64,000 nt of DNA from Escherichia phage vB_EfeM_pEP20: sequence record OQ743992; one strand, given 5' to 3'. The notes under the pieces were generated by a model. The model saw only the letters and a list, made by a program, of their open reading frames with translations. It searched no databases and was not told the origin of the DNA. The position numbers and the translations under genes are program-made. Numbering within the stretch: position 1 is the stretch's first letter; each line of letters starts with the position of its first letter. Of this stretch, positions 642 to 8,510 are shown in pieces.

Positions 642-1010
642 CTTCAAAGTAACTTTATAGCCCCCTATAACATACTTTTTAGTGACTATCAAGGGGATTG
701 TTTAGTAGTTCACAAGATACTAGCCAACCTATTAGCTTACACCCTTATAAGATTCTTTTAAGCCTCTATAAAGCCCTGTAAAGAGCTTTTAAGGGTGAGT
801 TAATGCAATCCCTTAAGTTAGGTTGATAAGGCTGTTATAGCGCTTTATAGAGCGTTTAAATGGGCCATCCCCTTTCTGGGGTTATTGGCTTATATTTAAG
901 TTGATTTGATAAAAGGCTATAGAGTAGACTATAGAGTTATTGCTTTTAAGGTCTGATAAGATTCTAGAAAGGCGAGGGAAAGGAATTGTATAAGGCTATT
1001 ACATAGACGT

Positions 1011-1044
1011 AAAAAAAAAAAAAAGCCCCTATGAGAAGGAGCTT
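1011..1044 (-). terminator. Intrinsic terminator closing the early ORFan cluster (minus strand)
   Basis: Minus-strand RNA: 7-bp stem AGCUCCU/AGGGGCU (one G-U pair) followed by U14 (A14 run at 1011-1024 on plus strand). Confidence 0.6.
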
Positions 1045-1081
1045 TTCAGGTATCTGGGGCTATTTAGCCCCGTTGCGTCGA

Positions 1082-1330
1082 TTAGTTGCAACCTTGTTTA
1101 TTGTAGTACAGGGAGACAATCAAATCACCCCAATAATGGTAATGATACTCATCGTTCAACGCCTCTTTTACTGCATCTTTCCAGAAGTCATCAGTAGGGT
1201 TATAGTCTGGGATAACTTGCTTGATAACTGTCTTCACTAATGAAAAGCATTCATCAGTTCCACCAATATCAAATTTAACGTCCAGAGTGTAGCAGCCATA
1301 AGAATTTACAATTGCGCGGATAGTTGCCAT
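1082..1330 (-). CDS. Hypothetical early protein (82 aa)
   Basis: ATG 8 nt after GGAGA within conserved type-A cassette; ends just before terminator. Confidence 0.5.
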   Translation of the reverse strand: MATIRAIVNSYGCYTLDVKFDIGGTDECFSLVKTVIKQVIPDYNPTDDFWKDAVKEALNDEYHYHYWGDLIVSLYYNKQGCN

Positions 1331-1403
1331 TTTTTGAATCTCCTAGTTTAAGGACTTTATTTAGTGGGGAAGCTCATTCCCTCCCCGTTGATTAGTAATT
1401 TAC
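1331..1403 (-). repeat. Type-A intergenic cassette (stem-loop GGGGAGGGAATGAgCTTCCCC, then RBS GGAGA, then ATG)
   Basis: About 70-bp element, near-identical at 5 sites. Confidence 0.6.
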
Positions 1404-1930
1404 AGATTTTTGATTGTCTCGTCAATATCTTTTTCAATATCTTTTAAAGTTTTTTCTAAGTTCTTGATATTGAAAGTTAAACCTTCTCCCAGTGTCTTAG
1501 AGTAACCGCTAGGACGTAAATCATAAAGCTCGATTTCTTCCACTAGAGAAAGGTTAACAGTCCAGCCACCTATGCCGTAGGCCATTGAAACGGTATTTAC
1601 AGGGGCTTTATAGAACTTGTTCAAGGACTTGATAGAACGTTCATAAGCCATTTTATAACCATTTAAAAGGTTTTTAACGTGATTGTGAACGTTTTTACAA
1701 TCATCTAAGTAAAGACCTAAAAACATCGGGAGAAGTTCCGCGACAGCTTGCATAAAGTGAGAAACTACCACAGTAGAAACATTACGACGATGGACGTAAT
1801 AAGCCCCGTTTTCTGATTTGGTGATTGTTGCAAAATGTACACCATTACAACGGAATTCATAGGTATCTTTAACAGGCTTTGACATAACACTATTTGAACG
1901 AATGAAGTTGATAGCTTTGAACTTGTTCAT
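1400..1930 (-). CDS. Hypothetical early protein (176 aa)
   Basis: Start moved to ATG (MNKFK...) that sits in the cassette RBS context; the track's longer 5' extension runs through the cassette. Confidence 0.5.
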   Translation of the reverse strand: MNKFKAINFIRSNSVMSKPVKDTYEFRCNGVHFATITKSENGAYYVHRRNVSTVVVSHFMQAVAELLPMFLGLYLDDCKNVHNHVKNLLNGYKMAYERSIKSLNKFYKAPVNTVSMAYGIGGWTVNLSLVEEIELYDLRPSGYSKTLGEGLTFNIKNLEKTLKDIEKDIDETIKNL

Positions 1931-2001
1931 TTTTGAATCTCCTAGTTTAAGGACTTCACTTAGTGGGGAGGTTATTGCCTTCCCGTTGATTAGTAATTTA
2001 C
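1931..2001 (-). repeat. Type-A intergenic cassette (degenerate stem-loop variant)
   Basis: Sequence similarity to the other type-A copies. Confidence 0.5.
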
Positions 2002-2152
2002 TTGTTTTGATAGTTGATTGCAAGTAATTTTTTGAGCTTATCTATAAAGAATCTTTTAAGTTAATCCCTTTTAGATAAACCCCCTCGAACAAAGTTACCA
2101 ATGTCAAGAGGGATTGTCAACATCTTTTTAAAAGTTTTTTGTAAGTTATTGA

Positions 2153-2494
2153 TTAACTGATGAATATTTTTTCAGGCTTTACATAGCTGATACGCTGACT
2201 TTTTAGCAGGCTATCCCATAACAAGGCGGCAATGTGCCCATATCCGGCCTCACGCAGCCCCTTCATCGTTTCAACTCGACTCTCAAAACGATTTGCGTAA
2301 TACTCGCTATTAAGTGTCGTTTTGTTCCCTTCGTTATCTGTATGGATGATTTGCATCACTTGAAAGGGGCTGACATCCTCGCCTTTGTTCCACTGCTCAA
2401 AGTATTTTAGGCACTGCATAGGTGACATCTTATCACTTACTTGAGTTGACCAAGATGAATCTTCTTTATCGGTAATTACAGTTACATAAGCCAT
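2153..2494 (-). CDS. Hypothetical early protein (113 aa)
   Basis: ORF plus cassette RBS. Confidence 0.5.
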   Translation of the reverse strand: MAYVTVITDKEDSSWSTQVSDKMSPMQCLKYFEQWNKGEDVSPFQVMQIIHTDNEGNKTTLNSEYYANRFESRVETMKGLREAGYGHIAALLWDSLLKSQRISYVKPEKIFIS

Positions 2495-2566
2495 TTTAGA
2501 ATCTCCTAGTTTAAGGATTTTATTTAGTGGGGAAGGTCATTCCCTCCCCGTTGATTGACAATTTAC
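2495..2566 (-). repeat. Type-A intergenic cassette
   Basis: ggggaaggtcattccctcccc hairpin plus GGAGA RBS. Confidence 0.6.
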
Positions 2567-2585
2567 AGATTTTTATCAGGCTTGT

Positions 2586-2819
2586 CTAGTCTTTTTCAAT
2601 GATAATTTCATATTGACCATCGACACTGTCAAAATAGACGCCGTCTTCATCTTCTGTCTTAAAGTAGCATTGAATATCATCACTGGCGGGATAGTCTTGT
2701 CTTGCTATCTGGCAAACTTGAATAGCATTTTCTTTACTCCCTGTAAACTCCTCAAGCCCTTTAAAATCACATGAATGACCATTACAAATAGAAAGGATAA
2801 GATAAACGGTTGTAAGCAT
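2586..2819 (-). CDS. Hypothetical small protein with hydrophobic N-terminus (77 aa)
   Basis: ORF; N-terminal MLTTVYLILSICNG; no cassette upstream. Confidence 0.4.
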   Translation of the reverse strand: MLTTVYLILSICNGHSCDFKGLEEFTGSKENAIQVCQIARQDYPASDDIQCYFKTEDEDGVYFDSVDGQYEIIIEKD

Positions 2820-2882
2820 GATTTAAGCCCTTTAAATGGCCCTGTATGGGCCTTAAGTTGGAAGTTGGTGTCTTTGTACTGA

Positions 2883-3446
2883 TTAACCTAAAAAGTCTTT
2901 TAAATTGCGCTCTGTGATGTTTGCCGTGATTTTATCCAGCAAGTCACAAAACACGGAACTATCACCGCTATTCTGTACAATTTTCGCCATACTTAACAAA
3001 TCATCGTCAACATAGCCTAAATTGCGGTTAGTTGCATCTGGTACAAAGAAAGGTGCATACATCGCACTAAATTTCGTCGAGTGAAGGCCAATAATCCAAT
3101 TTTTATCAAAGTGTCCGGTAAAGCTGGCGATATCGCTCATGTTGTCACAAGAATAATCATCCTCTAGCTCTTCCTCTGGGATATCCATCTCAATGACAAT
3201 TACGTCCTGCGTTTCCATTTGGAAAGCTGCCGTAATAAGCCCAGATTCTAAAGCGTTTTGAATGCAGCGTTCACGAATGTAAGAATCTTCCTCATCTTCC
3301 AGACATTCCGTTTTGATAATCTTGTTCATTGGGTAAACGTAGAAACAATCATCCATGTAGGAGCAGTTCCAGATTCCTTCTGGCTTGTCACCACCATTCA
3401 GCAAGTTTACAAAGTTTTTGAGGGTAGTGCCGTGATAGCATTTCAT
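2883..3446 (-). CDS. Putative PARP/diphtheria-toxin-like (H-Y-E class) ADP-ribosyltransferase-like protein (187 aa); tentative
   Basis: N-terminal YHGTTLKNFVNLLNGG resembles PARP HGSRTTNFAGILSQG and toxin SYHGT; followed by SYMDDCFYVY (compare YMFGKGIYF) and a candidate catalytic Glu in VIVIEMD; type-B cassette upstream. Confidence 0.4.
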   Translation of the reverse strand: MKCYHGTTLKNFVNLLNGGDKPEGIWNCSYMDDCFYVYPMNKIIKTECLEDEEDSYIRERCIQNALESGLITAAFQMETQDVIVIEMDIPEEELEDDYSCDNMSDIASFTGHFDKNWIIGLHSTKFSAMYAPFFVPDATNRNLGYVDDDLLSMAKIVQNSGDSSVFCDLLDKITANITERNLKDFLG

Positions 3447-3538
3447 TTTTGAATCTCCAGTTTAGGATTTAGCGGTAAAGCTCTTTATCTGGGGCTTAAG
3501 ATATCAACTTTTAAGCCCCCTGTAAAGTACTTTATTAC
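3447..3538 (-). repeat. Type-B intergenic cassette (palindrome GTAAAGTACTTTAC, hairpin GGGGCTTAA...TTAAGCCCC, RBS)
   Basis: About 90-bp element found at 6 sites. Confidence 0.6.
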
Positions 3539-3736
3539 TTAATTTTTGACAACTTTTAAAACTGCAAGATAACCTAAGCAATAAGAATCACCGAAGAGAG
3601 TTCTACCCATGAAAGAATCCTCTTTGATATCCTTTGCAGTGACAGTTTTTTCTACGCCGTGGGAAAGGACTACATCACCAACTTTGATGTCTTTGATGTG
3701 TGTTGTTTCAATGGTTAAGCCGTTAATAATAGCCAT
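3539..3736 (-). CDS. Hypothetical early protein (65 aa)
   Basis: ORF plus type-A cassette RBS. Confidence 0.45.
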   Translation of the reverse strand: MAIINGLTIETTHIKDIKVGDVVLSHGVEKTVTAKDIKEDSFMGRTLFGDSYCLGYLAVLKVVKN

Positions 3737-3808
3737 TTTAGAATCTCCTAGTTTAAGGACTTTATTTAGTGGGGAAGGTCATTCCCTCCCCGTTGATTAG
3801 TAATTTAC
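3737..3808 (-). repeat. Type-A intergenic cassette
   Basis: Near-identical to the 2495-2566 copy. Confidence 0.6.
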
Positions 3809-3839
3809 TTGTTTTAAAAACCAAAATCAAGAGGAATTT

Positions 3840-4244
3840 TTATAGTTCTGCGTAAATTGCGTCACAGATATCACGAAAATCATGATTTGTTAAATTACGT
3901 TGCAACCATGTTGCGAAAAAGTCAGCGATTGCAAAATTTGCGTCATACTCGACAGATAACCACACTTTAACAGCAAAACGAAACATTTTTAAATCAAGCT
4001 CTTTATTCATTACCTTAGATTTGCCTAACATGTCAGCCATTTCATATTGTGCACCGTCTAGCGTGATACCTGCTGCAACGTCAGCCAGTGAGTTTTTTAC
4101 GTTTTCAACGTCTAAGATAACACTTTGAATCTTCCCGATAATGTTGTGCAATGTCTCATCCGGTGCTGATGATGTAATAACATTAATCCGATTAACGGTC
4201 AAACGTGCTTTTAAGATTGATAACTCACGGTTATTAATAGCCAT
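3840..4244 (-). CDS. Hypothetical early protein (134 aa)
   Basis: ORF plus type-B cassette RBS. Confidence 0.5.
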   Translation of the reverse strand: MAINNRELSILKARLTVNRINVITSSAPDETLHNIIGKIQSVILDVENVKNSLADVAAGITLDGAQYEMADMLGKSKVMNKELDLKMFRFAVKVWLSVEYDANFAIADFFATWLQRNLTNHDFRDICDAIYAEL

Positions 4245-4329
4245 TTTAGAATCTCCAATTTAGGATTGAGTGATAAAGCTCTTTATCTGGGGCTTACTTT
4301 ATCGAACTATAAGCCCCTTGTAAAGTACT
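4245..4329 (-). repeat. Type-B intergenic cassette (variant loop)
   Basis: ggggcttactttatcgaactataagcccc hairpin plus gtaaagtactttat. Confidence 0.55.
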
Positions 4330-4602
4330 TTATGCTAAATGCAGCTTTTTGCCTTTTACTATGATGTAACTTGATGCACTATTGCCGCATACATCTTGAT
4401 AAATTCTACGCAAACGGCCTTCGTAGTATACTTTCCAGCTAGTTGGAATCTTTTTCCCGTATCCGGTAGCAGTTTTTTGGAATCCTGCAAGTTGCCAATC
4501 CAAAATGTGCTGTTCAGCTTGTAAATCCTCGAAGTGCATTACACCGTTCACATAGTGGCGTAGGGTTACGTTTAGAGTGCGACTGTTGTTAGCAGTATAC
4601 AT
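4330..4602 (-). CDS. Hypothetical early protein (90 aa)
   Basis: Start moved to ATG (MYTANN...) directly after a cassette-type GGAGA RBS. Confidence 0.45.
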   Translation of the reverse strand: MYTANNSRTLNVTLRHYVNGVMHFEDLQAEQHILDWQLAGFQKTATGYGKKIPTSWKVYYEGRLRRIYQDVCGNSASSYIIVKGKKLHLA

Positions 4603-4627
4603 TCTAGAATCTCCTAGTTTAAGGATT

Positions 4628-4786
4628 TTATTTTGACAGTTCACTAATTAAGACATCAAAGATTATATCATTATCTGCTACAGTTGCAACACCAGTGATA
4701 TAATCAATTTCTAAGATAACAACAACTTTCGTACATAAACCGTCATCTATATCATTCCAGACAACTTTATCACCTGCACAAAACAT
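4628..4786 (-). CDS. Small hypothetical protein (52 aa), absent from the ORF track (below its size cutoff)
   Basis: Hand translation MFCAGDKVVWNDIDDGLCTKVVVILEIDYITGVATVADNDIIFDVLISELSK; ATG preceded by type-A cassette RBS. Confidence 0.35.
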   Translation of the reverse strand: MFCAGDKVVWNDIDDGLCTKVVVILEIDYITGVATVADNDIIFDVLISELSK

Positions 4787-4856
4787 TTTTAGATTCTCCA
4801 GTTTAGGACTTTATTTAGTGGGGAAGGTCATTCCCGCCCCGTTGATGTGTAATTTA
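4787..4856 (-). repeat. Type-A intergenic cassette
   Basis: ggggaaggtcattcccgcccc hairpin plus RBS. Confidence 0.55.
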
Positions 4857-4875
4857 ATCTATCTGAAAACCAGTG

Positions 4876-5208
4876 TCAACAGTTTTGTTTTCGTTTGTTC
4901 AGTTCTTGGACAATTACAGTGTAATAGTCTTTTAAGTCACTGATATTTAAAGCATTTATCAGAGAGTTATAATCATCGACAAGCTGAAAATCATCTTTGA
5001 AAATGTCGCTGATTTGATAAGTTTTTGATTGAAATCTGAAGCTCATTTCTAACCGTTTTATTTGTTCATCACTTAAACGCTCCAGAAAACTCATTACAAG
5101 GCTATTATTGACCTGTTGCGTGATTGCCTTACTTGCCAGATTGTAGGCGCTGTACGCCTTATATAGCGCCATAATAGCAATGATTGCAGTGACTCCCATC
5201 ATTAACAT
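4876..5208 (-). CDS. Hypothetical membrane protein (110 aa, N-terminal TM helix)
   Basis: ORF; hydrophobic MLMMGVTAIIAIMALY; start overlaps the stop of the upstream gene. Confidence 0.45.
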   Translation of the reverse strand: MLMMGVTAIIAIMALYKAYSAYNLASKAITQQVNNSLVMSFLERLSDEQIKRLEMSFRFQSKTYQISDIFKDDFQLVDDYNSLINALNISDLKDYYTVIVQELNKRKQNC

Positions 5209-5498
5209 GGTGTTACCTCTTTACGTGACACTTTGCCATTTACAGTTATCTCATAGGATTCTAATAAATCGCTTTTAGACTTTACAGGACTTTTAAAAGT
5301 ATCATCATAGATATTAACTTGCAATACAGGTTTTTTATACTCCCTGCAACTATTCCATAAGCAAATCACTACACGACGGCCTTTTATTTTGCCGTGTAAC
5401 CATTCCATAACATCATGACTATTCCTTGATGTCTCGATAAAATCGATTTTATTGAGTAATTTGCTAAGGTTTTCCCTAACTTTATTTGATAATTTCAT
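5202..5498 (-). CDS. Hypothetical early protein (98 aa)
   Basis: ORF plus type-B cassette RBS. Confidence 0.5.
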   Translation of the reverse strand: MKLSNKVRENLSKLLNKIDFIETSRNSHDVMEWLHGKIKGRRVVICLWNSCREYKKPVLQVNIYDDTFKSPVKSKSDLLESYEITVNGKVSRKEVTPC

Positions 5499-5590
5499 TT
5501 TAGAATCTCCTAGTTTAAGGGTTTTATTTGATAAATCTCTTTATCTGGGGCTATCCTACCAGCTTGATAGCCCCGTGTAAAGAGGTCTAT
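5499..5590 (-). repeat. Type-B intergenic cassette (variant)
   Basis: ggggctatcctaccagcttgatagcccc hairpin plus RBS. Confidence 0.5.
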
Positions 5591-6103
5591 TTAGTCCTTA
5601 AAGATATTCATCACTGAATCTTTTAATGCTTCCAAGCGTTCTAATACTTCAGATTCTGCGTCTGCGTTGTTCACTTCCTCTTTTAGTCTGCCATCTAAAT
5701 CATCGCCGTCACTGTAGCACCAATCGAAAGCATAACCAATATAAAAACTGTCTAAAACAGTGTTACCATCTGCATCTACAACTTTCGCGGCAATGTTATA
5801 CTCTGAAGCCTCTAAATCTCTTTCTAGTTCTTTCTGTAAGCTGGTGTAAGCCTCTTTTGATGGATTTTCCCGACCTTGTTTTGCATAGTCACTAGAAAGC
5901 TGTTTAAGGCTGTAATGTAAAGGGATTGCATATTTAAATTCATTATGCTGATGGTTGGGATTTTTAATAGTTACACCGCCTTGATGGTCATCTGTAAACT
6001 GCCAATTATCAAGATTATGGCTTGCTTCAAAGCAGTTTACAGCTTCATAGATGATAGAAAATTTTTCTTTTACAACTTCAAAGGTAGCGTCTACAGTTTT
6101 CAT
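5591..6103 (-). CDS. Hypothetical early protein (170 aa, acidic C-terminus)
   Basis: ORF plus type-B cassette RBS. Confidence 0.5.
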   Translation of the reverse strand: MKTVDATFEVVKEKFSIIYEAVNCFEASHNLDNWQFTDDHQGGVTIKNPNHQHNEFKYAIPLHYSLKQLSSDYAKQGRENPSKEAYTSLQKELERDLEASEYNIAAKVVDADGNTVLDSFYIGYAFDWCYSDGDDLDGRLKEEVNNADAESEVLERLEALKDSVMNIFKD

Positions 6104-6193
6104 TTTTGAATCTCCTAGTTTAAGGATTGAGTGGTAAAGCTCTTTATCTGGGGCTTAAGATATCAGCTTTTAAGCCCCCTGTAAAGTACTTTA
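6104..6193 (-). repeat. Type-B intergenic cassette
   Basis: Same element as 3447-3538. Confidence 0.6.
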
Positions 6194-6451
6194 TCAGATT
6201 AAATTGCCAGTTAATGATAAGTGCATTTTATAGCCTTTTTTGGTAAACACGTTCACTTTACCGAGTGATTTTACACCTTTAAAAAGATTGTTTGAACTGC
6301 GTTTTAAGGTTATTTGCTTATCAGCCTTCACGCTCCACCTTACAGCAGATTGTTTTCCGTTGTCAACAACTTTCCCGCCTAACTTTTTCGCCATGATGCG
6401 AGCGTCATCACGAGTTTTTGCAGGAACTACAACGTTTTTGATAATAGCCAT
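6194..6451 (-). CDS. Hypothetical basic protein (85 aa)
   Basis: ORF plus type-B cassette RBS. Confidence 0.5.
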   Translation of the reverse strand: MAIIKNVVVPAKTRDDARIMAKKLGGKVVDNGKQSAVRWSVKADKQITLKRSSNNLFKGVKSLGKVNVFTKKGYKMHLSLTGNLI

Positions 6452-6539
6452 TTTAGAATCTCCAATTTAGGATTGAGTGATAAAGCTCTTTATCTGGGGC
6501 TTACTTTATCGAACTATAAGCCCCTTGTAAAGTACTTTA
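6452..6539 (-). repeat. Type-B intergenic cassette
   Basis: Near-identical to 4245-4329. Confidence 0.6.
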
Positions 6540-6920
6540 TCAGTTAATTTTGAATATTGTCACATAACCATCACTACCAATTATTTGAGACGCTCCAGCT
6601 TTCTCCACTGAATAGCCCATATTTTCAAGATGGTAAACAGCATCATCATAACCATATGCGCCACCTTGATAACGTCTCTTATTGCAGCTTATCAGGTTTT
6701 TACCACGTCCAGCAAGTGCATTCAATACGGCTTTTTCACTTGATAGCGTACCATCTAACATGGTTGCCGTGTAATGGTTGATTTTATTCCCGTTAATATC
6801 ATACTTAAAATTGAATGCGTGAACAACAATCAATTTGCCGTTAAATTTTTCATCAAGTGACTTCTCCAGTGCGTTGCGGAAGTTGTCTTTGTTGATGAAT
6901 TTCGGTGCACGATAAGCCAT
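6540..6920 (-). CDS. Hypothetical early protein (126 aa)
   Basis: ORF plus type-B cassette RBS. Confidence 0.5.
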   Translation of the reverse strand: MAYRAPKFINKDNFRNALEKSLDEKFNGKLIVVHAFNFKYDINGNKINHYTATMLDGTLSSEKAVLNALAGRGKNLISCNKRRYQGGAYGYDDAVYHLENMGYSVEKAGASQIIGSDGYVTIFKIN

Positions 6921-7009
6921 TTTTGAATCTCCTAGTTTAAGGTTAATGTAGTAAAGCTCTTTATCTGGGGCTTAAGATATCAGCTTTTAAGCCCCCTGTA
7001 AAGTACTTT
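6921..7009 (-). repeat. Type-B intergenic cassette
   Basis: Same element as 6104-6193. Confidence 0.6.
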
Positions 7010-7216
7010 TTATTTATCGTAGTAGTAAATTGCTGTCTGTCTTGTAAACTTCTTAGTGTTTCTTGTAAGGTAGCAATTAGAATTAATAGCCGTTTCTACA
7101 TAGTTGCAATAGTCGGCTTCTGATATTCTGGACCATACGCCACAGATTTTCATGTAAAAACGTTTTGCCTTTGTGTTAACGTTAGTTGTAACCATTAATT
7201 CACGATAGTAAGTCAT
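7010..7216 (-). CDS. Hypothetical early protein (68 aa)
   Basis: ORF; RBS ggaga plus a different upstream hairpin. Confidence 0.45.
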   Translation of the reverse strand: MTYYRELMVTTNVNTKAKRFYMKICGVWSRISEADYCNYVETAINSNCYLTRNTKKFTRQTAIYYYDK

Positions 7217-7472
7217 TTTTGGATTCTCCAGTTTAGGAAGTGGGCTGGCTTGCCCGTCTGATGCAAATATTAGATAACCATACTCAAAGAGTCAATAGGA
7301 ATTTTAAAAATATTTTTGCAAAAAACTGTAATGAAACGGGCGCACGCGACTACCACAAAACAGAACTACAATCAAGAATTATTTTTCAATCAGCTACAAA
7401 TTTTTCTGTTGACTTTTCTTTTCAGATGTGGTAGCCTTGTGAGAAATGGCGACATCCCCACCTGCACCCACC

Positions 7473-7651
7473 TACCTGCACAATTCTAAAATGATTTTTC
7501 TTGCCCGACCTGAGCGGGGTCTGCACGTTTTGAAAATAAAAAAACCCTTTGGAGATTACCTGCACAGTTTGAAAATGAATTTTCTCTTTGGAGTTCAAAA
7601 TTTTCTCTATAGATTTCTCTACAGAACTCTACCTGCACAAATCTGAAATGA
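7473..7651. promoter_or_regulatory. Three direct copies of 22-bp motif TACCTGCACA(a/g)(a/t)T(c/t)TGAAAATGA at ~7473, 7557 and 7630, in a 500-bp intergenic region
   Basis: Read directly; about 80-bp spacing; candidate promoter or operator sites between two minus-strand gene blocks. Confidence 0.4.
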
Positions 7652-7724
7652 AAAAGCCCTCCTTACCTGAAAAATTTACCAGATAAGAAAGGCTTAGTCT
7701 ATTGTGAATATACTACGAAGTTTC

Positions 7725-8510
7725 TTAGTTCTTTGCGTCTAAGAAGGTAAGCTCTGGTGAAGAGAAGATTAACTCAATATCCTCATCAGTTCTTGCATAG
7801 ATATAAGCATCTGCATCACTGCCAAATGTTACTGCAATTCTGTGATTGCTCTTCGACAGGTGGGTAACTAGAGCGTTACTTAGAGACATCTTTTCAACCG
7901 GAGGGTTACTTTGATGTATCTTGCCTTTTCTTCGTCTGAAGAGGGTAACTGCATCATTAGTGAACACTACTACACCTGCAAAGTATTCTGGTTCACAGTA
8001 GTTCTTCCAACCTGAGCGTAACTTGTGGTACATCTCTCCTTCATAGACATATAGATACACATCTACACTCTTCATCACTTGATTAATGATAACTGTGACG
8101 GCTTGAGGGTCTAGTCCACCGATACCTGCACCAATCATAGGTAACCCAACTTTCTTCAACTGATTGACTTCACAGTATCTGTTAAGCTGTTTCAAAGATG
8201 ACTCTAAAGCACTGTATCGGGCATCTTTACCAGTCTTAAGCTGAGTGTAAAGGTTAGCTATACGACCTTGTTTTAAACGTGCTACAGAGAAATTACCTAG
8301 CAAATTTTCACAGGGTTTGTAGCCTATACCACCTGCATACAGATAAACTTCTGTATCAGTCTCATATGCTTTTGGGTAAAGTTTAGAAATCTTGTCAGCG
8401 ATACCTGCACCCATTAAGTTCATACAGTTGCAACCGTGACCGATGACGTCAAACTTACCTTTATCAAATGCTGCAAAGATATCACCATTGATGATTTTTA
8501 CAATACCCAT
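7725..8510 (-). CDS. Macrodomain protein (TARG1/OARD1- and DarG-like N-terminal domain plus about 110-aa C-terminal domain of unknown function)
   Basis: GDIF...HGCNCMNLMGAGIA and LPMIGAGIGGL resemble TARG1 GDLF...MGAGIA and MPRIGCGL; last gene of a coupled operon. Confidence 0.6.
   Translation of the reverse strand: MGIVKIINGDIFAAFDKGKFDVIGHGCNCMNLMGAGIADKISKLYPKAYETDTEVYLYAGGIGYKPCENLLGNFSVARLKQGRIANLYTQLKTGKDARYSALESSLKQLNRYCEVNQLKKVGLPMIGAGIGGLDPQAVTVIINQVMKSVDVYLYVYEGEMYHKLRSGWKNYCEPEYFAGVVVFTNDAVTLFRRRKGKIHQSNPPVEKMSLSNALVTHLSKSNHRIAVTFGSDADAYIYARTDEDIELIFSSPELTFLDAKN

Follow-up and report, generated by a model that had tools for sequence, protein, structure and literature searches.

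Promoter and stem-loop cassettes probably organise a shuffled block of small accessory genes in a Felix O1-like phage

A 6-kb block in the genome of Escherichia phage vB_EfeM_pEP20 (sequence record OQ743992) is probably a hyperplastic accessory-gene region made of cassettes that combine a promoter, a stem-loop and a ribosome-binding site (RBS), similar to the promoter-early stem-loop (PeSL) cassettes of T4-type phages. The block spans positions 1082-7216 of the 64,000-nucleotide (nt) stretch analysed here, called the window below. It contains 15 open reading frames (ORFs) of 52-187 amino acids (aa), all on the minus strand, with a terminator at either end; every gene and cassette described below lies on that strand. 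By sequence similarity, the window is from a Felixounavirus. Megablast of 1000-7400 matched 256 phage records, nearly all Felix-O1-like myoviruses of Escherichia, Salmonella, Shigella and Citrobacter, the best match being Salmonella phage PK6 (92.8%). As judged from the sequence comparisons, every cassette comprises a sigma-70-type promoter abutting the upstream stop codon, a hairpin whose pairing is kept by compensatory change, and a shared RBS module. The same comparisons place the junctions of insertions, deletions and allele replacements of whole gene units among relatives in the cassettes. Our confidence in the promoter identity and in the cassette-bounded shuffling is higher than in the reading as a whole, and for each specific hairpin role we regard the chances as even.

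An earlier sequence-only reading of this DNA had described two families of repeated cassettes, and both are real. The type A hairpin GGGGAGGGAATGACCTTCCCC is present in four copies at no more than one mismatch, with 0 expected from shuffles, and a diverged fifth copy lies at 1965-1984. The type B element CCCCAGATAAAGAGCTTTA is present in six copies (0.04 expected). The earlier reading gave each of about 15 small genes a cassette; the 15 ORFs and their sizes stand, and the number with a type A or type B cassette is only 11 (five A, six B). The remaining four genes are preceded by a promoter (P1), by an RBS module alone, by a 7-nt overlap with the upstream gene, and by a different hairpin. Both cassette types end in the same 25-30-nt translation-initiation module, CCT(T)AAAYT(A)GGAG, of which there are 13 copies in the 64 kb, every one on the minus strand within 1340-7237. 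Type A has the order TTGACA-like -35, N17, TAAATT, N6-CAAC and hairpin, and its -35 variants in the window are TTGACA, TTGACG, TTGCAA, TTGATT and TAGACA. Type B has TTTACA, N17 and then TATCTT, TAAAGT or TAGGAT, all within a 60-nt two-tier hairpin; the stem GGGGCTTAA/TTAAGCCCC fills the -35/-10 spacer and overlaps the -10. The 14-base-pair (bp) palindrome claimed for type B matches the sequence at 13 of 14 positions, and the perfect palindrome is 12 bp long (TAAAGTACTTTA) and lies over the -35.

The sigma-70-type promoters of both cassette types hold the most strongly conserved non-pairing positions, as far as sequence can tell, and had been overlooked. Such a promoter lies within the repeated intergenic motif in all 12 cassettes of the window. 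A promoter scan found TTTACA-17-TAnnnT at six of six type B copies and TTGACA-like-17-TAAATT at three type A copies and at P1; in the two remaining type A copies, 8 of 12 positions match. We then compared the homologous block in 14 genomes from four genera of Ounavirinae, namely Felixounavirus, Kolesnikvirus (Erwinia), Mooglevirus (Citrobacter) and Suspvirus, and the aligned cassettes are conserved across all of these. In type B, the distance from TTTACA to TAnnnT is 16-18 nt in all 74 copies (exactly 17 in 70). These copies use 10 different -10 hexamers, and 36 have an extended -10 (TGn). The type A and P1 copies are equally regular: 66 of 66 read -35, N17, TAAATT, TAATAT or TAAAGT (TAGTAT in one), N6, CAAC and hairpin. 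An alignment of 41 distinct type B copies showed that T33 and A34 in the loop and the unpaired C14 and A15 of the -35 are invariant, with variable neighbouring loop positions. A promoter can account for the invariance of these unpaired bases, and pairing does not. The 22 nt upstream of the -35 have a mean A+T content of 75%, against 61% for the window. The upstream stop codon precedes the -35 by 5-12 nt, or falls within one of the two hexamers, in 10 of the 12 cassettes; three cassettes have it as part of a hexamer, namely the -35 in TTGACA and TAGACA and the -10 in TAAATT. The cassettes close at their 3' end with a Shine-Dalgarno sequence and the start codon of the gene that follows. At the level of sequence, the sigma-70 promoter identity of both cassette types is well supported.

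The hairpins, too, appear from their covariation to be selected structures. The type B hairpin had been recognised as GGGGCUUAA/UUAAGCCCC; it is present, and it is not merely this stem, since the full structure has about 22 pairs over 60 nt. The minimum free energy (MFE) is -21.6 to -24.2 kcal/mol, with z of -4.2 to -5.4. In the fold, a 3x3 internal loop separates an upper stem of 9 bp from a lower stem of 12-13 bp that has one mismatch. Across 44 distinct sequences anchored at both ends, standard pairs occupy 90% of the cells for the 22 pairs, compared to 35-53% in controls in which the partner was shifted by 1-3 nt. Seven pairs show double-sided (compensatory) changes. At pair 19, 39 sequences have G-C and 5 have U-A; at pair 6 these numbers are 32 and 7, and pairs 23-25 show several types each. 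The variant cassette at 5499-5590 has a left arm that is not palindromic any more, and its long hairpin is retained by compensatory changes. G.U outnumbers A.C by 79 to 5 cells, terminal pair excluded, and this excess points to RNA of the coding strand. The folding energy is lower on the sense strand in 29 of 44 unique sequences (p = 0.065) and in 14 of 14 copies from the three other genera, though not in this window. The 37 distinct type A hairpin sequences all fold, each into a G/C stem of 4-8 bp in the same location. In 66 of 66 copies this hairpin begins 10-11 nt past the -10, which corresponds to +3 to +5 of the transcript for the predicted start. The intrinsic-terminator scan reports no cassette hairpin and none has a U-tract behind it, in line with the sequence-only reading; the stem is followed by ACUAAAUA in type A and by AGAUAAAG in type B. 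The processing or stability role that this reading preferred to a terminator role is plausible.

The right arm and leader of type B, CAGATAAAGAG(C/A)TTTA, are near-invariant across the four genera, including the unpaired G47 and A48. The copies lie at 3475-3496, 4273-4294, 5531-5552, 6134-6155, 6480-6501 and 6951-6972. On the aligned sequences, this conservation exceeds what pairing or promoter hexamers would account for.

The block had been called hyperplastic, and the comparison with its surroundings agrees. Of the 256 records, only seven span 80% or more of it as a single piece, with 1140 matching places; the neighbouring 6.4 kb is covered to at least 80% by 211 of 277 records, with 282 matching places. 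Gene content was compared between cassettes across relatives, as the sequence-only reading had suggested, and the gene-and-cassette maps show whole gene units gained, lost and swapped, inserted or deleted between like cassettes. Units flanked by B cassettes include the 126-aa and 85-aa genes, missing in Felix O1, the 170-aa gene, missing in LinBro, and an extra 82-aa gene in P54. Units flanked by A cassettes include the trio of 65-, 187- and 77-aa genes, missing in Felix O1, and an extra 87-aa gene in skuden. The indel of the 52-aa gene sits between two RBS modules. Orthologous genes can also be found behind different cassette types. The 187-aa gene is behind B in most genomes and behind A in Mijalis, the 113-aa gene is usually behind A and is behind B in phiSUSP1, and the extra 82-aa gene is behind B in P54 and behind A in phiSUSP1. 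Genes and cassettes, as these maps indicate, assort independently. In Felix O1, the promoter half of the cassette for the 113-aa gene is the one found before the 65-aa gene in other phages, a combination expected from a crossover in the shared hairpin and RBS part.

Allele replacement follows the same boundaries. Identity to skuden, gene by gene, is 100, 90, 93, 90, 64, 90, 82, 89 and 71%, and the flanking macro-domain gene has 95-96% identity everywhere. The 85-aa and 187-aa genes have two alleles each among relatives (about 71% and 64-66% identity, respectively), and all four combinations were found; the 82-aa gene also has two alleles, at about 71% identity. The divergent segment of the 187-aa gene extends from about 10 nt past the ATG to the RBS of the next gene, and the breakpoints of allele divergence lie at cassette edges. 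Cassettes within one genome are 82-100% identical, the most similar copy occupies a non-orthologous position for 22 of 100 cassettes, and functionally equivalent loop variants are shuffled among orthologous cassette positions. The type B copies at 4235-4333 and 6442-6540 have 100% identity over a 99-nt stretch that takes in the first three codons of two unrelated genes. This identity suggests a recent gene conversion within this genome.

We propose that host RNA polymerase would start at each cassette soon after infection, so that every small gene would be an autonomous expression unit; since each cassette carries a promoter, each gene would form its own transcription unit. The type A hairpin, located at +3 to +5 of the predicted transcript, probably serves as a 5'-terminal mRNA stabiliser. 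The type B hairpin covers the promoter from about -45 to +17 and would form only in transcripts that enter the cassette from upstream. Transcription from the cassette itself is predicted to start about 7 nt past the -10, at A46, immediately behind the upper stem, and the cassette's own transcript would be without the hairpin. In the read-through RNA, the hairpin probably attenuates, pauses or is cleaved as an RNase III-type substrate, and each unit would be insulated. By analogy with known hairpins, type B is probably an insulator on read-through RNA, with attenuation or processing alike possible. The near-identical cassettes would be substrates for homologous recombination that shuffle the genes, with every recombinant retaining working expression signals. 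A more detailed version for type B, which we put forward only tentatively, is an RNase III- or pause-type 60-nt hairpin superimposed on a sigma-70 promoter with its start at A46. Read-through RNA would be cut or halted there, the same monocistronic mRNA would result whatever the neighbours, and the leader AGAUAAAGAG would be a handle for a regulator. If this two-level module is true, a gene placed between two cassettes would be insulated and expressed immediately, a plug-and-play socket.

Several observations weigh against this proposal. The searchable literature has no mapped Felixounavirus transcript ends, so promoter use, starts and cleavage are predictions. The -10 hexamers are mediocre and match TATAAT at 3-5 of 6 positions. 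The region-wide promoter scan is modestly above shuffles (40 vs 27.8 +/- 5.3), and the case rests on position and conservation. Early expression, which the sequence-only reading had assumed, holds in part: in endpoint reverse transcription PCR (RT-PCR) of Felix O1, four block homologues peak at 5 min and others at 25 min (PMC3185647 Table 3). The type of cassette, A or B, showed no link with this RT-PCR timing. For the type B hairpin, the antisense fold is equally or more stable in four of five copies in this window, and thermodynamics by itself leaves the strand of the hairpin unsettled. The cassettes are linked by descent and exchange, and the covariation counts are thus of non-independent events. 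The right arm AGATAAAGAG is near-invariant and conserved beyond the needs of pairing. The location of junctions at cassettes could partly reflect the survival of expression-competent recombinants, not preferred crossover.

We weighed four other explanations. The block could be read as one polycistronic transcript from the promoter at 7295-7267, in which the hairpins are only processing or stability sites and the hexamers are incidental. A good promoter does precede the block, terminators bound it, the hairpins are structurally conserved, and the type B helix matches an RNase III substrate in size and internal loop. What makes us consider this account unlikely is the behaviour of the hexamers themselves. 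The unpaired -35 and -10 consensus positions are invariant across four genera where adjacent loop bases vary, the spacing is fixed at 17 nt in 70 of 74 type B copies, and about half of these copies carry the extended -10 TGn. The type A hexamers are conserved as well, although the hairpin does not include them, and at least five -35 variants all keep N17. The palindromes of type B invite a different explanation, which is compatible with a promoter: a dimeric phage or host regulator that shuts off or times these promoters would bind the DNA at two near-palindromes, TAAAGTACTTTA over the -35 and TAAAGAGCTTTA around +4 to +15, and the long helix would be a by-product. The perfect 12-bp palindrome at the -35, the right element AGATAAAGAG that is near-invariant in the 41 aligned sequences from four genera beyond the pairing need, the Kolesnikvirus copies that read TAAAGAGCTTTA at both sites, and the roughly equal folding of both strands in this window all speak for it. 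We nevertheless find it doubtful. In the variant 5499-5590 and its homologues the left site is non-palindromic (AGATTTCTTTA or AGACCTCTTTA) yet complementary to the co-changed right arm, and pair 6 has changed from G-C to U-A in 7 of 44 sequences, with new G.U pairs besides. The ratio of G.U to A.C (79 to 5) is unexpected for a site in duplex DNA, and no DNA-binding domain was found in the 15 block genes.

The shuffling, in turn, might owe nothing to recombination at the cassettes: they would be alike through a shared need for expression and would not be preferred recombination sites, other recombinants having been lost. Of the alternatives this one is the most serious, and we consider it a possible though less probable account. 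The conserved parts are exactly the promoter, the hairpin and the RBS module, and the phages compared are independent isolates past selection. Shared need fits poorly with two copies that are identical over 99 nt, non-consensus positions and first codons included, with equivalent loop variants shuffled among orthologous positions, or with the 22 of 100 cassettes that are nearest to a non-orthologous copy; for T4-type cassettes, recombination has been detected directly as mini-circles (PMC2839356). The spread of MITE-like (miniature inverted-repeat transposable element) or homing-associated repeats through intergenic regions is a very improbable origin. It would account for many near-identical copies in one region, and the repeats are annotated merely as direct repeats in Felix O1 and wV8. 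The copies are, however, strictly co-oriented with the genes, each sits exactly between a stop codon and the next start, and they are limited to one block of the 64 kb. Neither terminal inverted repeats nor target duplications accompany them, no gene for a nuclease or transposase is nearby, and BLAST saw no copies in unrelated phages or with target-site duplications at unrelated sites. The proposal of promoter, hairpin and RBS cassettes that double as recombination joints remains the reading we consider likely. The observation made in the sequence-only reading is confirmed, and its interpretation is partly supported.

The PeSL cassettes of T4-type phages were described by Arbiol, Comeau and Krisch (2010, PMC2839356) and by Comeau (2014, PMC4122927). 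Such a cassette begins at the stop codon of one gene and ends at the start codon of the next, and between the two it has an A+T-rich stretch, a sigma-70-type promoter, a stem-loop and a Shine-Dalgarno sequence. The stem-loop (G-run, loop, C-run) is located between the -35 and -10, over the -10 or just downstream, and the promoter consensus in T4 and PST is TTTACW-N17-TAYWAT. PeSLs concentrate in hyperplastic ORFan regions and bound indels or replacements between relatives (PMC2839356, PMC4122927). A PeSL G/C stem-loop cut downstream reporter expression as much as rrnB T1, which makes it a strong terminator or attenuator (PMC2839356 section 14), and promoter and terminator activity as well as mini-circles were shown by experiment for the PeSLs of RB49 and phi1 (PMC2839356). 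The likeness to PeSLs that the sequence-only reading had proposed holds feature by feature (PMC2839356 section 14). All sequence-level features are found in the Felix-type cassettes; the experimental ones are known for PeSLs alone. Type B has its upper stem across the spacer and the -10, type A has its hairpin downstream of the -10, and the motifs are confined to 1340-7295 of the 64 kb, a hyperplastic ORFan region. The Felix-type cassettes differ in that the type B stem-loop is a 60-nt two-tier helix over the whole promoter, conserved across four genera, and in that a long shared RBS module joins the two types. With blastn (word size 11), both cassettes matched only Ounavirinae records, one of them mislabelled Tequatrovirus, with no homology to T4-type PeSLs, and Ounavirinae are a different phage family from the T4-type phages. 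The resemblance, as far as these searches reach, is functional and architectural and not homology. The mislabelled record, L007 (PV390658.1), is that of an 88-kb Felixounavirus, and its Straboviridae/Tequatrovirus taxonomy line is evidently wrong.

The PeSL authors refer only to T4-like phages. In the Felix O1 paper, 57-bp and 39-bp 'direct repeats' are listed without interpretation (PMC3185647), and the wV8 record annotates the cassette repeats as DR_1 to DR_9. The literature that we searched has no earlier functional reading of these repeats as promoter-hairpin cassettes, and the Bas63 essentiality preprint is silent on them. A T4 MotA box was considered for the TGCTTTA present in some relatives' type B copies and was rejected; it lies 19 nt from the -10, not about 12, and the window has TACTTTA.

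Other systems resemble the individual hairpins. The R0.3-R1.3 RNase III signals of T7 are reportedly hairpins, about 50-60 nt long, that separate small early genes read by the host polymerase. They are said to consist of two helices of about 10 bp with an internal loop and to be without a U-tract, and cleavage in the loop reportedly leaves a protective 3' hairpin on the upstream mRNA. Type B is similar in its irregular helix, which makes about two turns and has an internal loop, and its cleavage is predicted by this analogy. The T7 sites differ in that none is known to be superimposed on a promoter, and transcription of the T7 early genes comes from three shared promoters upstream. With 7-8 bp, the type A hairpin is not long enough for such a substrate. 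It resembles more the 5' untranslated region of ompA, where a 5'-terminal stem-loop is said to protect the E. coli mRNA: the type A and P1 hairpins lie a few nt from the predicted 5' end and are followed by an unstructured A/U-rich leader and a Shine-Dalgarno sequence. The morons of lambdoid phages and the host-takeover module of SPO1 are reportedly small accessory genes with their own promoters. They resemble the block in clustered short early genes, strong promoters and RBSs, and a gene content that varies among relatives; morons are said to differ as usually single insertions with their own terminator. We know of no description of either as two near-identical composite cassette families that act as recombination joints.

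The block is bounded upstream by an intrinsic terminator-like hairpin with a T-run at 7654-7695, which closes the preceding operon, and downstream by one with a 14-T run at 1020-1047. These are the equivalents of Felix O1 t13 and t23, and the block therefore corresponds to Felix O1 genes 14-23 (PMC3185647 Table 2). The terminator scan reported just these two sites bounding the block and one chance-level match within a coding region. In the direction of transcription, the first cassette is P1 (7217-7295), of type A architecture, with -35 TTGACT at 7295-7290, -10 TAATAT at 7272-7267, hairpin GGGCAAGCCAGCCC at 7255-7242, an RBS module at 7237-7214 and a stretch of 91% A+T upstream. It precedes the 68-aa gene (7010-7216; phrog_5293). 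The type B cassette at 6921-7011 (-35 TTTACA 7002-6997; -10 TATCTT 6979-6974 with TGn; long hairpin 7011-6951; RBS module 6942-6918) leads to the 126-aa gene (6540-6920), and that at 6452-6540 (-35 6531-6526; -10 TAAAGT 6508-6503; long hairpin 6540-6480) to the 85-aa gene (6194-6451). A further type B cassette, at 6104-6194 (-35 6185-6180; -10 TATCTT 6162-6157), has its long hairpin at 6194-6134 (MFE -21.8 kcal/mol, z -4.2) and precedes the 170-aa gene (5591-6103). The variant at 5499-5590 (-35 5581-5576; -10 TAGGAT 5558-5553; long hairpin 5590-5531, MFE -24.2 kcal/mol, z -5.0) is followed by a gene pair at 4876-5498, made of the 98-aa gene (5202-5498) and the 110-aa gene (4876-5208), with a 7-nt overlap and without a cassette between them. 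The two are neighbours in all 12 Felixounavirus, Mooglevirus and Suspvirus genomes compared except MET-P1-301, in which the 98-aa gene is replaced.

The type A cassette at 4787-4879 has -35 TTGACA at 4879-4874, which holds the upstream TGA stop, -10 TAAATT at 4856-4851 and its hairpin at 4840-4820. The 52-aa gene behind it (4628-4786) is present or absent depending on the relative. An RBS module alone fills the 25-nt intergenic region at 4603-4627, a junction of the 52-aa gene indel, before the 90-aa gene (4330-4602). The type B cassette at 4245-4333 (-35 4324-4319; -10 TAAAGT 4301-4296; long hairpin 4333-4273, MFE -21.6 kcal/mol, z -5.4) precedes the 134-aa gene (3840-4244). It is followed by the type A cassette at 3737-3830 (-35 TTGATT 3830-3825; -10 TAAATT 3807-3802; hairpin 3791-3771) with the 65-aa gene (3539-3736), and by the type B cassette at 3447-3535 (-35 3526-3521; -10 TATCTT 3503-3498; long hairpin 3535-3475) with the 187-aa gene (2883-3446). 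The intergenic region at 2820-2882 is different. It has a hairpin GGCCCATACAGGGCC (2852-2838) without a recognisable promoter and precedes the 77-aa gene (2586-2819). The hairpin GGCCCAUACAGGGCC in this region has only AUUU after its stem. A proper U-tract follows the corresponding hairpin in skuden and NBEco004, and the phage wV8 record annotates a terminator at the homologous site. The last three cassettes are of type A: 2495-2588 (-35 TAGACA 2588-2583, holding the upstream TAG stop; -10 TAAATT 2565-2560; hairpin 2549-2529) before the 113-aa gene (2153-2494), 1931-2023 (-35 TTGCAA 2023-2018; -10 TAAATT 2000-1995; diverged hairpin 1984-1965) before the 176-aa gene (1400-1930), and 1331-1425 (-35 TTGACG 1425-1420, inside the upstream gene; -10 TAAATT 1402-1397, holding the upstream TAA stop; hairpin 1386-1366) before the 82-aa gene (1082-1330).

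The genes of the block had been described as ORFans. Pfam gave no match for any of the 15 proteins, and 14 of the 15 were assigned to PHROGs, every one of unknown function. Apart from the ADP-ribosyltransferase fold of the 187-aa protein, the genes are of unknown function. A paralogy of the 65-aa and 90-aa genes was rejected as an artefact of single-linkage clustering, as BLASTP shows no similarity. Rfam gave 0 matches at gathering score within the 64 kb, and no tRNAs were found in the window.

In the RBS modules, GGAG can pair with the conserved CCU(U) 6 nt upstream to form a small hairpin with the loop UAAACU. Among 117 cassettes, the extra T of the 5' arm and the extra A of the 3' arm are both present in 63 and both absent in 54, and no cassette is mixed. 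This could be a weak structure masking the Shine-Dalgarno sequence, or merely two linked haplotypes. The 222-nt gap before the 176-aa gene has extra sequence in its upstream part (2024-2152), with two TTGACA hexamers and the inverted repeats AATCCCTC...GAGGG...AGGGATT. It is kept in length and content among relatives (gaps of about 176-223 nt).

A putative ADP-ribosyltransferase (ART) had been placed in the block, and the protein at 2883-3446 has this fold. The AlphaFold model of the 187-aa protein shows an ART fold with the RNA 2'-phosphotransferase Tpt1/KptA as closest match. The model needed diverse relatives from a profile search of a 1.84-billion-protein library; a 12-sequence alignment gave a predicted local distance difference test (pLDDT) score of 44. 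The protein has YHGT at its N-terminus and the near-invariant residues H4, G5, T6, Y35, D96, S98 and C99. H4-G5-T6, Y35 and D96 are invariant or nearly so in 76 diverse relatives and are compatible with the H-Y-[ED] type. The 187-aa protein has no Pfam match and nothing meaningful in the PDB by sequence or profile. On the model, the assignment as a putative ART is supported at fold level. A preprint reports Gp107 of phage Bas63 as more essential on strain S17-1 and as slightly similar to the RNA 2'-phosphotransferase NAD-binding domain; by locus tag, Gp107 appears to be the homologue of the 187-aa protein. Just upstream of the block, 7725-8510 on the minus strand encodes a macro-domain protein (PF01661, E 1e-7) that is called 'phosphatase' in databases, and relatives annotate a polynucleotide kinase a few genes further upstream. 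The ART-fold gene, the macro-domain protein and the polynucleotide kinase together suggest a theme of RNA repair or ADP-ribose.

A 508-nt non-coding gap (motif copies within 7470-7660, minus strand) has 3-4 copies of a motif of about 24 nt, (C/T)ATTTTCA(A/G)ANTGTGCAGGTA. The motif is found only in the gap between the terminator at 7695-7654 and the promoter at 7295-7267 and nowhere else in the 64 kb; its copies could be regulator sites or a promoter class other than sigma-70. Downstream of the block terminator, the non-coding region 1-1000 contains 18 copies of TTAACA and 10 of TAACAAG in 1 kb, and several inverted repeats. Felix O1 has about 1.5 kb without genes at the matching place. Because Felix-like phages carry short terminal repeats (608 bp in UAB_Phi87), this region may be near a genome end, a packaging site or an origin.

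The cassettes would extend the PeSL idea, in which regulatory cassettes double as recombination joints, from the T4-like phages to an unrelated phage group, and they would give a function to repeats known merely as 'direct repeats' in Felix O1 and wV8. They predict the transcript architecture of the accessory block and 12 start sites on the minus strand, near 1390, 1988, 2553, 3491, 3795, 4289, 4844, 5546, 6150, 6496, 6967 and 7260. Felix O1-like phages are used in diagnostics, biocontrol and therapy for Salmonella and E. coli, and the cassettes would offer natural, portable expression sockets for phage engineering. The genes of the block had been proposed as enriched for host takeover and anti-defence. 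As independently expressed, exchangeable units, they and the ART-fold protein among them would be candidates for host-takeover and anti-defence screens.

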